Shown here: positions 26,690-29,118 of the stretch, in pieces
How the letters are laid out: each line of letters opens with the position of its first letter
How positions within the stretch are numbered: position 1 is the stretch's first letter
Origin: Escherichia phage pEC-M719-6WT.1
Strand: one strand, 5' to 3'
Sequence record: OQ845957.1
DNA length: 64,000 bases
The notes under the pieces: model-generated
Seen by the model: the letters and a program-made list of their open reading frames with translations, nothing else
Database searches by the model: none
What the model was told of the DNA's origin: nothing
Translations under genes and position numbers: made by a program

Positions 26690-26989
26690 CTAATCTACCT
26701 TACTTAAGTTGAAGTTTAAGCCAAGTTTATCACAAACACTAATCATGTAGTCAAGAGATACTTTCCCACTACCATTCAGAATGTTTGAGACTCTGGCTTG
26801 AGATATTTCACAAATCTTTGCTACCTGAATCTGTGAAAGGTTGTTTCTTTTCATGTGGATGTTTAACTTTTCAGAGATGTAAAACTTCATCTCATCAACA
26901 TCCATTCCTGCTATATAAGCTTCCATTTCAGCCTCTCTATCTGCCCCCCAATCATCTTGAGGTGCATAAGGGTCAAAGATACTATTCAT
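26690..26989 (-). CDS. XRE-family helix-turn-helix DNA-binding protein
   Basis: 99 aa; LSQIQVAKICEISQARVSNILNG helix-turn-helix-like segment. Confidence 0.55.
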   Translation of the reverse strand: MNSIFDPYAPQDDWGADREAEMEAYIAGMDVDEMKFYISEKLNIHMKRNNLSQIQVAKICEISQARVSNILNGSGKVSLDYMISVCDKLGLNFNLSKVD

Positions 26990-27185
26990 CTTTCTTTCTC
27001 CGTTTACGAGAAGTGTCGATTAACGAATCAAGGTTAGTAGCTCTAACTTGTTCACGAGTACCATTGATGTAGTTATCAAGGGACTCTACAACAGTGTTGA
27101 AGTCTTTAGCCCAAACTCTGTAAATAACTACGCCGTCATCGTCAATAACTTCACCATAGTCTACTCTACAGATACTCTTCTTCAT
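26982..27185 (-). CDS. Small hypothetical protein, overlaps HTH gene by 8 nt
   Basis: 67 aa ORF, basic C-terminus. Confidence 0.45.
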   Translation of the reverse strand: MKKSICRVDYGEVIDDDGVVIYRVWAKDFNTVVESLDNYINGTREQVRATNLDSLIDTSRKRRKKDE

Positions 27186-27562
27186 TGTGGAAGACCCATG
27201 CAGTGACGGTTAATGATAAAGTGTTCAACACCGTCTAAAGCACCCTGAGAAACGTGCTCTTTCACAACTTCAATTTCAGCAATCTGCTCAGGGTTAAGAA
27301 CGTCAATGTTTTCTGTAACCATCATATCAGAAACATCAAGGTAGTACTGCCCCATTGTGTGGTAATTGAAATCAATTATCTTGTCAGTTAATTCATAAAC
27401 AGTGTCTTGAGAAATTGGCTTGGTCAATTCTCCAGCTTTAGAAACAACCTTTTTAGCAACCTGACAAGCTTCTACTCTGACGTTGTTGTAATCAATCTTT
27501 GGCATATCTGCATAAGCATTGAGGCTTAGTGCTGCAAAGAGACATAATGTAATCTTTTTCAT
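27182..27562 (-). CDS. Secreted/periplasmic protein
   Basis: 126 aa; N-terminal signal peptide MKKITLCLFAALSLNAYA with AYA-D cleavage-like site. Confidence 0.55.
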   Translation of the reverse strand: MKKITLCLFAALSLNAYADMPKIDYNNVRVEACQVAKKVVSKAGELTKPISQDTVYELTDKIIDFNYHTMGQYYLDVSDMMVTENIDVLNPEQIAEIEVVKEHVSQGALDGVEHFIINRHCMGLPQ

Positions 27563-27737
27563 AACTTACTCCTATATAATATTTTGTATATCTACGAGTA
27601 TAAAAATAAGCTATAACACCTGACTTGTCAACAGATTTTATAGCTTATTTGGCAGATTTTTTATAAGGCTACTGCCATCCTTCCATACCTTACCACACAA
27701 GACCAAACCATGCCGTACTCCACTTCACAGTACCAAG

Positions 27738-27775
27738 CATCACTTAAAAATCCTCTTAAAGACCCTTAAGTGATG
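27738..27775. promoter_or_regulatory. Palindrome CATCACTTAA-N18-TTAAGTGATG (copy 1)
   Basis: Perfect 10-bp inverted arms read directly from sequence. Confidence 0.6.
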
Positions 27776-27824
27776 TAAGTCTCATTTTAATGTAGCTGAG
27801 ACTAACTACCCATACCATGCCTTA

Positions 27825-27892
27825 CACCACCGAACCACACCAAACCACACCAAACCATACCAAACCATACCAAACCATACCATACCAAACCA
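27825..27892. repeat. Tandem ~10-bp repeat array (CAAACCA[C/T]AC x ~6-7)
   Basis: Direct reading: ccaccgaacc acaccaaacc acaccaaacc ataccaaacc ataccaaacc ataccatacc aaacc. Confidence 0.8.
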
Positions 27893-27916
27893 GAGCCTAC
27901 TATACCATACCGAACC

Positions 27917-27953
27917 TCACTTAAAAACCCTCTTAGAAGACTCTTAAGTGATG
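27917..27953. promoter_or_regulatory. Palindrome TCACTTAA-N19-TTAAGTGA (copy 2 of flanking palindrome)
   Basis: Near-identical to copy 1 including loop (AAAACCCTCTTAGAAGACTC vs AAATCCTCTTAAAGACCC). Confidence 0.6.
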
Positions 27954-28017
27954 CTGGTGAGTACCCGTTGGTTTATGCTGCTCAGTATACTCACCAAATT
28001 TTCTATGTCAACAACTT

Positions 28018-29118
28018 TTATTCATAATCTCGAATAACTAACCCAACAGGGAACTGTAAAGAACCCTTACGAGTCATCTTCTGGAACTGAACCGTTAAAG
28101 GTTTCCCGATAAACTCTTCAGGATGTTCAGCAAGATACTGTTTCTTCTCATGGGTAGTCTTCCATGAAACATCTACAAAGACATTAGGAAGAGTCTCTAC
28201 AACGAACTTACCATGACCACGCTTATCAGTCTTCACACCAGTTACTTTAAATTCCTCTGTGTGCATCTTCTTATGTTTAATCAGGAAGTAAGAACGGTGA
28301 CCACACTCATAGAAAGAATCTGCTGAAATGGAACGGTACATTGCCCCTTCAAACTTCAGCTTAACCCAATTATCATGGGCTTTGTCAAACTCTTCCCAAG
28401 AGTTAACACGTATAGTTTGAACAGGTACAACCTTGCAAGCATCGCCAAGTTCAACGATTGGTGAATTATCAATGATTTCACGTCGCTCAGGCCAAGACTT
28501 AGTGCTATCACAGATATCATACCAGTAGAACTTAAGAAGGTGACGGTCTGGATTGTCAGCATTCTTAATCATTGAAACAATATCTTCCAAATCCCAACCA
28601 TGAGCATAAATCTCACCATCGAAGTCTGCAACTTGTGGATGGCATTTAAGCAGTAAAAGTAAGTCTGGAATTAACTCTTCAGGTACGTTGTACACAGTAT
28701 TTTCACGGGAATAAGCTGTGAAGTTCACTGAGTCAACATCTCTTGAAATCCTGCAACGAACACCATCAAGTTTTGGTTGAGCGTCAGCAGGGAATTTCAA
28801 ATACTTTGCATGACTAACCTTGGAAGCATCATGAGCAAGCTGTACACCTACCTTTTCAGTATTCTGTGCAGACTCTTTTGTGTAAGCATAACCTTTGCGG
28901 TCAACTTGCTTCTTGTACTTAGCAGCAACTTCAAAGAGAGCTTGCTGTTCAGCGTTACGCTCATTCTTTTTACCGATGTTTTTCGGTTCTGCTGTGTACT
29001 CTTCAAACATCATCTTGCCATTCTCTTTACCATAGGTGGTAACAACTTTGTCACCTACAGCAACACATGACCAGACGTTAAAGGAACCATCTTTATTTTG
29101 TTTGTACAGAATTGTCAT
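28018..29118 (-). CDS. ATP-dependent DNA ligase
   Basis: 366 aa; nucleotidyltransferase motif I KLDGVRC (KxDGxR); size similar to T7-type ligase. Confidence 0.7.
   Translation of the reverse strand: MTILYKQNKDGSFNVWSCVAVGDKVVTTYGKENGKMMFEEYTAEPKNIGKKNERNAEQQALFEVAAKYKKQVDRKGYAYTKESAQNTEKVGVQLAHDASKVSHAKYLKFPADAQPKLDGVRCRISRDVDSVNFTAYSRENTVYNVPEELIPDLLLLLKCHPQVADFDGEIYAHGWDLEDIVSMIKNADNPDRHLLKFYWYDICDSTKSWPERREIIDNSPIVELGDACKVVPVQTIRVNSWEEFDKAHDNWVKLKFEGAMYRSISADSFYECGHRSYFLIKHKKMHTEEFKVTGVKTDKRGHGKFVVETLPNVFVDVSWKTTHEKKQYLAEHPEEFIGKPLTVQFQKMTRKGSLQFPVGLVIRDYE

Follow-up and report, generated by a model that had tools for sequence, protein, structure and literature searches.

What occupies the conspicuous 455-bp noncoding gap next to the ligase gene of Escherichia phage pEC-M719-6WT.1? 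The gap lies at positions 27563 to 28017 of a 64,000-nt stretch of sequence record OQ845957.1, referred to here as the window; ~23 kb of the phage genome lie outside it. The window belongs to a Felix O1-like myovirus (Ounavirinae): its ligase protein is 96.7% identical to the ligase of Suspvirus EcSzw-2, and the DNA surrounding the ligase gene is ~85% identical to that of many E. coli, Salmonella, and Shigella phages. A run of minus-strand genes spans ~23.6 to 33 kb of the window, and no open reading frame (ORF) of at least 60 amino acids (aa) is found from the ligase stop codon (28018) to the start codon that follows (27562), as had been noted in an earlier reading of the bare sequence (hereafter, the original prediction). 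We conclude that the gap very probably harbors two guide RNA genes (vrRNAs) on the minus strand, which belong to a type II, SUSP1-clade Viral Interference Programmable Repeat (VIPR) system. Established in the present analysis are the anatomy of the region and its conservation, covariation in its hairpins and tails, the link to the Vipr protein, and the target rule on homologous guides.

A 10-bp tandem repeat is present in the gap as originally predicted (Tandem Repeats Finder: period 10, 6.5 copies, 92% matches, 27828-27892), but its basic unit is a 5-nt GGTNN pentamer on the minus strand; a second call of the same program had period 5 (15.6 copies, 27834-27911). In the whole 64 kb, 60-nt frames with 5 to 12 phased GGT were found only at 27734-27941 on the minus strand, and the plus strand never contained more than 3 phased GGT per frame. 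Repeat units upstream of the array had also been proposed, and the motif CCAAACCATACC (up to 2 mismatches) indeed occurred in 20 copies in the window versus 3.7 expected, 17 of them within 27683-27911. Likewise, the two palindromes were recovered, as TCACTTAA-N(10-30)-TTAAGTGA matched exactly twice (27740-27773 and 27917-27951), whereas 100 shuffles yielded 0 matches. However, the picture of one array bracketed by two sites did not hold. Instead, a ~178-bp module, consisting of a hairpin (H1 or H2), an array (A or B), and a tail (type S or type T), is present twice. The dinucleotides (NN) of array A read TC AT AT AG CT TT AT AT TT AT TT AT TT GT TT GT TC GG AA AT AT, those of array B AC GA GG AC AT TT CT GT AA AT, and it is array A that contains the 10-bp tandem repeat, as (GGTTTGGTAT)n and (GGTTTGGTGT)2. 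In a position profile of 59 distinct arrays from 25 related loci and the window, G was present at position 1 with a frequency of 0.78-0.80 and at position 2 with 0.97-0.98, and a pyrimidine (Y) at position 3 with 0.95-0.96, while positions 4-5 carried ~0.1 bit of information. Hairpins, tails, and promoters were nearly invariant among relatives, and the arrays varied between phages at NN only.

Comparison of relatives also supported folded RNA structures in the region. For the H hairpins, RNAalifold predicted 17 pairs from 20 copies, 6 of which had compensatory double changes. Three G-U/U-G pairs were invariant or nearly so on the minus strand and correspond to A-C mismatches on the other strand. 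Since these pairs are kept only as minus-strand RNA, the H hairpin structure belongs to a minus-strand transcript; the palindromes are thus not symmetric sites, as first thought, but RNA hairpins preceding each array, and the GU-rich structured minus-strand RNA that had been offered as a further option proved essentially the correct reading. In the type S tail, 100% of alignment cells pair, and 3 stem pairs showed compensatory changes (GUCUCA/UGAGAC versus AUCGGA/UCCGAU) next to invariant pseudoknot pairs. In the type T tail, 98% of alignment cells pair, with compensatory changes both in the stem (GGCAG/CUGCC versus GGUAG/CUACC) and in the pseudoknot (AAGG/CCUU versus GUGG/CCAC). The H hairpins may function in processing or as a boundary. 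A pairing of H1 with H2, which appeared when the complete 381-nt transcript was folded by minimum free energy, was discarded as an artifact of two same-type hairpins in this phage, as relatives combine different hairpin types. We also dropped a motif in the hairpin loops that we had taken to be boxA-like. No Rfam match was found up to E = 1 (27000-28600).

The protein that belongs to these arrays was found through other viruses. A 195-aa gene is flanked by the same modules in phages wV8 and SUSP1. Scanning IMG/VR for eight GGT at 5-nt spacing, with NN free, yielded >120 loci, many of which were microsatellites or coding repeats; dozens, however, were irregular GGTNN arrays, often several per locus. 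In many of these loci, the arrays begin a few bases after an ORF of ~170-210 aa, and the array-adjacent ORFs are members of a single family, which has a C-terminal GxGD(F/W)RP..G motif. The array-associated proteins had no Pfam match. The family corresponds to phrog_4652 in PHROGs (unknown function), includes wV8 gp95, which is encoded between modules, and counts hundreds of unnamed homologs among phages and prophages. A profile of 37 homologs matched PDB entry 36pp, "SUSP1 Vipr protein," with E = 3.6e-81, and an AlphaFold model of a Vipr homolog reached a pLDDT of 94.7.

The VIPR class was described in 2026 in two preprints (10.64898/2026.04.26.720920 [= PMC13142463] and 10.64898/2026.04.26.720927), in which it was proposed to predate clustered regularly interspaced short palindromic repeats (CRISPR). 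According to these preprints, Vipr represents a minimal form of RAMP protein with relatives in Cas5/6/7, and a vrRNA has 9-16 YNNGG repeats, which are followed by an invariable 3' tail of ~40 nt with a hairpin and a pseudoknot, the pseudoknot tail being that of the SUSP1 clade. One Vipr protomer sits on each repeat and sequesters GGY, and NN pairs with double-stranded DNA while one target base per unit is skipped, in natural targets usually at the codon wobble position. Transcription of rival phages and satellites is repressed when Vipr-vrRNA binds; of the 20 SUSP1-clade guides whose targets could be identified, 18 match a satellite that parasitizes the phage, and some satellites carry vrRNAs of their own (discovery preprint). 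The SUSP1 vrRNAs are discrete ~100-nt RNAs that copurify with Vipr, and one of them is encoded upstream and three downstream of vipr-vap1.

The type S tail of vrRNA-A corresponds to the published invariable tail with its pseudoknot. Since arrays, tails, and promoter are the same as in SUSP1-clade loci, the elements of the window are vrRNA genes of this clade. Like the type II locus of SUSP1 (vrRNA1-4, vipr, and vap1), the region is located downstream of the ligase gene and has the promoter P1, H hairpins, GGYNN tracts, and S/T pseudoknot tails. Unlike SUSP1, it has neither vipr nor vap between its modules and only two guides, of which guide A has 21 units with an internal tandem expansion. By analogy with SUSP1, for which these steps were established by others, the vrRNA precursor would be cut to repeat tract and tail, a Vipr protomer would bind each repeat and bury GGY, and the resulting filament would present the NN dinucleotides to double-stranded DNA, skipping every third target base, which would repress transcription of competing phages or satellites. 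Expression, Vipr binding, and silencing are thus carried over to pEC-M719-6WT.1 from the preprint data on SUSP1. The features of the region are compiled in Table 1.

Table 1. Features of the ligase-side noncoding region of the window
Feature	Position	Strand	Remarks
Promoter P1 (presumed), TTGACA-N16-TATACT	27984..28011	-	11/12 consensus matches; starts 7 nt past the ligase stop codon
Hairpin H1 (CATCACTTAAGAG...TTTTTAAGTGAGG)	27915..27953	-	Directly 5' of array A; second palindrome of the original prediction
vrRNA-A repeat tract	27812..27916	-	21 GGYNN units, 18 with canonical GGY
3' tail of vrRNA-A, type S, GGGTAG-TTAGTCTCA-GCTACATTAAAA-TGAGACTTAC	27775..27811	-	Hairpin and pseudoknot (GUAG with CUAC in the loop)
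Hairpin H2 (ATCACTTAAGGG...TTTTTAAGTGATG)	27738..27774	-	Directly 5' of array B; first palindrome of the original prediction
vrRNA-B repeat tract	27685..27734	-	10 units, 6 with canonical GGY
3' tail of vrRNA-B, type T, GGAAGG-AT-GGCAG-TAGCCTTATAAAAAAT-CTGCC	27651..27684	-	Hairpin and pseudoknot (AAGG with CCUU)
AT-rich inverted repeat, then T run	27600..27650	-	Arms of 19 nt, 89% complementary; terminator-like
Promoter P2	-35, 27631-27626; -10, 27608-27603	-	-35 in the loop of the inverted repeat, -10 in its 3' arm and the T run; 10/12 consensus matches
Limits of the insertion/deletion unit	27626..28021	-	16-nt direct repeat ATAAAAgtTGTTGACA / ATAAAAtcTGTTGACA at both ends, 380 bp apart

P1 is presumed to be the promoter of the vrRNA precursor, and transcription from it in this phage would be expected from its sequence. 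It was nearly invariant in 22 related loci, was always located upstream of the first hairpin and array, and represents a second, stronger promoter beside P2 (11/12 versus 10/12 consensus matches). P2 is the TTGACA-N17-TATTTT sequence (minus strand, 27631..27603) that had been correctly placed at the low-coordinate edge of the gap. It serves the downstream 126-aa gene, which has a GGAG ribosome-binding site at 27572-27569 and its ATG at 27562. The terminator-like end of the vrRNA transcript overlaps this promoter of the next gene; a consensus terminator scan did not call the AT-rich inverted repeat at 27600..27650. A perfect 9-nt inverted repeat, TGGTGAGTA / TACTCACCA (27955-27963 and 27988-27996), spans the P1 -10 box and the transcript start and is kept in all related loci; it could be an operator. 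Three genes downstream, a helix-turn-helix (HTH; XRE-type) protein is encoded at 26690-26989. The notion that the H hairpins themselves are operator sites for the downstream HTH protein was rejected, since there are two coexisting hairpin types, which differ in their arms and have retained G-U pairs. Finally, a 35-aa ORF on the plus strand (27817-27924) lies wholly within array A; its simplest explanation is a by-product of the C/A-rich repeat, not a gene.

To see how the region is organized in other phages, we compared 19 IMG/VR loci, which were recovered by an exact search with the small hairpin of tail S, and added wV8 from GenBank. All loci share one grammar: P1 is followed by 1-3 units of hairpin, array, and tail, and then either by P2 and the next gene, or by wV8 gp95/gp94-type genes, a GC hairpin, and 1-3 further units. 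In wV8, gp94 occupies the position that the preprint gives for vap1, next to vipr. The SUSP1 locus (L010; L numbers denote the retrieved contigs and loci) contains one array upstream and three downstream of the protein genes, in agreement with the published SUSP1 small-RNA map. L020 and KEP1 likewise have arrays of 18-21 units. The element is missing in EcSzw-2 (84-bp gap) and Sf13 (85-bp gap), which have a single promoter, no arrays, intact flanking genes, and one copy of the 16-nt direct repeat (L024, 4595-4640; L156, 1962-2048); the window has two copies, at 28006-28021 and 27626-27641, which form the P1 and P2 -35 regions. The vrRNA region thus looks as if it had been gained or lost by recombination between promoter -35 copies. 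Among the Erwinia and Pectobacterium Ounavirinae examined (Kolesnikvirus and Arno162), neither gap nor element was present.

Existing records of these phages have little to say about the element. The GenBank record of wV8 labels it merely "DR_4," the searched passages of the Felix O1 genome paper contain no description of it, and a literature search on Felixounavirus transcriptomes returned unrelated papers only. Between the ligase gene and P1, wV8 (L001, 2860-2980, minus strand) and several of its relatives have a very hydrophobic ORF of ~48 aa, which is not in the window.

Some IMG/VR loci of the array type differ more strongly from the window. Three unrelated contigs (L081, 3242-4394; L030, 4599-5047; L037, 2216-3396) carry up to 16 consecutive GGTNN arrays beside Vipr homologs, and in place of pseudoknot tails short motifs punctuate the arrays, GGCAGTT in L081 and GGCTAATGG in L030. 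Presumably, these loci represent other VIPR types. Five further loci (L042, L134, L123, L059, and L130) have a different ORF directly ahead of their irregular arrays: it is a member of phrog_15946, a family of unknown function that has no Pfam match and is unrelated to the Vipr family. It might be an accessory gene, or it might encode an additional array-associated protein.

What speaks against a pair of vrRNA genes concerns the missing effector, the guides' fit to their targets, and two points of anatomy: array A, with its 21 units, is outside the published range of 9-16, and the portion of the preprint text that was searched gives no account of H hairpins. As for the effector, tblastn searches of the 64-kb window with 30 family members (wV8 gp95, gp94, and 28 array-upstream ORFs) for vipr or vap returned nothing better than E = 0.25. 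With neither vipr nor vap1 at the locus, this is not a complete type II VIPR system, and every vipr-positive relative examined has vipr at this ligase-side locus. In the absence of vipr and vap from the 64 kb, the guides are orphans, able to act only if Vipr comes from elsewhere. The phage is not alone in this. In the phage collection, 230 records matched the 455-bp element, versus 118 Ounavirinae records with vipr, and among Salmonella phages 75 records had the element versus 17 with vipr; guide-only loci are therefore common. About half of the related phage records hold the element without vipr, apparently including Felix O1 itself. The words "orphan" and "Felixounavirus" occur in neither VIPR preprint text. 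In the preprints, the SUSP1 clade was defined by a search with the Vipr protein, so loci without vipr may have been missed.

As for the targets, we turned to the satellite, which was found through its baseplate gene and which 474 of 5426 complete E. coli genomes carry. Five copies were fetched (L142-L146), and the target search covered these five satellite loci plus exact-pattern scans, with the 80% NN match of the preprint authors as cutoff. Homologous guides obeyed the published rule well. For the fourth SUSP1 array (L010), 18/20 bases agreed with the serine recombinase gene of the satellite, and the skipped bases coincided with codon position 3. Similarly, the 16-unit guide of LF110P1 fitted a satellite gene, conserved and 107 aa long, in 26-28 of its 32 bases across copies (null maximum, 23), again with skips at the third codon position. 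That the 1-nt-skip target rule could be reproduced on these homologous guides supports the vrRNA reading.

The guides of the window fit less well. Array A is homologous to the first array of LF110P1, with the first 7 and last 4 units shared and the middle expanded. Its first 8 units matched 14/16 at the satellite site of the LF110P1 guide, in the same register, and its last 11 units matched 15-17/22 when anchored at the other end of the site; over its whole length, array A matched at 25/42 only. As the 5' and 3' parts match from opposite anchors, the 10-bp repeat is a slippage expansion that has put the guide halves five units out of register. The "helical-phase 10-bp iterons" are accordingly pairs of 5-nt guide units, slippage-amplified in this phage only, the LF110P1 homolog having 16 nonrepetitive units. 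From its sequence we infer that guide A derives from a guide against the conserved 107-aa gene of the E. coli satellite. We think that it is at least partly disabled by the expansion, and that a relic or partly disabled guide is the most likely state of array A. The 3' part of array A had 4 matches in IMG/VR, none of which extended past the seeded bases (24-26/42). Array B has its homologs in the fourth (last) SUSP1 array and the last array of L005, which show the same degenerate TGT/AGT/GGC units, and differs from the SUSP1 array at 5 NN bases. Its best match, 15/20 (75%, below the 80% cutoff), was at the recombinase site of the SUSP1 array. No better variant of this site for array B was found in the 5426 complete E. 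coli genomes, where a synthetic array B query in the recombinase context found no genome closer than the unmodified site (score, 94.4%), and its exact pattern was not found in IMG/VR or in GTDB species representatives. Guide B probably derives from a guide against the serine recombinase gene of the satellite, judging by this homology. No self-targets were found in the window; the best matches there were 26/42 (array A) and 14/20 (array B).

The satellite itself is ~11 kb long. Its tape-measure and baseplate genes are ~72% DNA-identical to 13.5-14.1 kb of the window. Two types of integration occur, one in the yciI-tonB interval and one within a DUF72 gene, each with a serine recombinase of its own.

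Are the two vrRNA genes, then, nonfunctional relics? According to this explanation, vipr-vap was deleted by recombination between hairpin/tail modules, and the remainder was kept because the region carries P1 and P2. Such a deletion is easily drawn, as repeated modules flank vipr-vap in vipr-positive loci, and relic status would account for a window without vipr, for the slippage expansion that shifted array A out of register with what its 16-unit homolog targets, and for the mere 15/20 of array B at the target of its own. However, orphan arrays kept the GGY profile as well as vipr-linked ones (mean canonical GGY fraction, 0.74 versus 0.73, with the same per-position frequencies), NN differed between orphans, their tails and hairpins were intact, and, as the record counts demonstrate, orphans are common. 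This conservation is not decisive, as frequent recombination with vipr-positive relatives could be an alternative source of fresh orphan arrays. We regard relics as a serious possibility, although we lean against it for the pair.

Conversely, vrRNA arrays without vipr might be a maintained strategy, in which the orphan guides function in trans, either by borrowing the Vipr of a coinfecting vipr-positive relative or by soaking up a competitor's Vipr as RNA decoys. The equal conservation of GGY and tails in orphan and vipr-linked arrays would be in line with this. So would a vrRNA in the satellite of E. coli ECONIH4 (L146, 2834-2898), which has 13 units and a phage-type T2 tail; no Vipr homolog was found in the 20 kb fetched around it, which fits the preprint remark that satellites encode their own vrRNAs. 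Satellites with own vrRNAs make the use of Vipr in trans plausible, and parallels exist in the cas-less mini-CRISPR arrays and RNA anti-CRISPRs of phages. Nevertheless, array A looks damaged, and no target of at least 80% was found for either guide, so we consider use in trans rather unlikely.

A replication origin, as suggested in the original prediction, is very improbable. It would combine a strong promoter, a G-rich transcript forming an R-loop on the C-rich template, and helical-phase iterons for an initiator or primase-helicase. A strong promoter is indeed followed by a G-rich, C-poor nontemplate strand, replication genes are near (ligase and, at the corresponding place in relatives, DNA polymerase), and T7 primase sites, (G/T)GGTC, resemble some units. 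However, the element is missing from close relatives with intact ligase and downstream genes and from other Ounavirinae genera, and the 10-bp phasing is specific to this phage, being absent in LF110P1 and wV8. Moreover, conservation of GGY alone with free NN fits a protein-bound RNA scaffold of published structure, and the hairpins rely on G-U pairs. The packaging/recombination site of the original prediction found no support either, and the chance of a packaging (pac/cos) site or of a terminus-associated repeat is negligible: short-repeat arrays adjoin T7 termini, and the GenBank record of phage warpig starts inside the element, but that start is most simply an assembly break in the repeat, the element is dispensable in relatives, and the experimentally mapped ends of UAB_Phi87, with 608-bp direct terminal repeats, place the ligase gene at 56.8-57.9 kb from the left end, i.e., ~57 kb away (PMC4837284).

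The warpig record (L002, 1-157) begins within the vrRNA region, which its submitters annotated as repeat_region; its start is probably an assembly break at the repeat and not a genome end. Among other candidates, two-tetrad G-quadruplexes (thrombin aptamer-like) were ruled out by the conservation at position 1, which is higher for GT than for GG. A Rho utilization site on the antisense strand and a recombination hotspot or minisatellite were considered before the Vipr link was found and were then dropped.

Neither is the element a CRISPR array. The sole long repeat is the ~178-bp module in two copies, there are no 23-50-nt direct repeats with contiguous spacers, and the variable parts are held to GGYNN. 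As in CRISPR arrays, a conserved structured element alternates with a variable targeting part, the RNA is bound by RAMP proteins, and arrays can occur without protein genes; cas-less CRISPR mini-arrays are carried by some viruses. Unlike in CRISPR, the variable part in the window is NN interleaved with GGY rather than a contiguous spacer, target reading skips 1 nt per unit, and both 23-50-nt direct repeats and acquisition genes are lacking from the element. The Bacillus trp leader offers another formal likeness: its TRAP site has 11 GAG/UAG triplets with 2-3-nt spacers. Here as there, the RNA is unstructured and repeats a conserved triplet at 5-nt intervals, with one protein subunit per triplet. 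In contrast to TRAP, Vipr has a RAMP/RRM fold and forms a helical filament instead of a ring, the spacers are informative, and the outcome is DNA targeting, not attenuation. With the PeSL cassettes of T4-type phages, as far as the consulted parts of the two papers describe them, the locus shares promoter and stem-loop modules that flank accessory genes, as well as presence/absence breakpoints within repeated promoter sequence (PMC2839356, PMC4122927). Unlike PeSL, which in those parts appear as short regulatory motifs without guide arrays, the VIPR modules are RNA genes themselves, at which recombination may have occurred.

These results explain a conspicuous 455-bp noncoding gap by a pair of VIPR guide RNA genes, without new biology. 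For annotation, this means that the "DR_4" repeats of wV8 and similar gaps of Felix O1-like phages can be labeled as vrRNA genes. The tandem repeat of array A is an example of slippage that lengthened, and probably disabled, a guide, and the presence/absence breakpoints in the duplicated -35 sequences suggest a route by which modules are gained and lost. Guides without effector in about half of the related records raise the question of whether they are shared, borrowed, or decoys in the conflict between phages and satellites. If such guides were indeed a maintained strategy, phages, like satellites, would carry guides alone.

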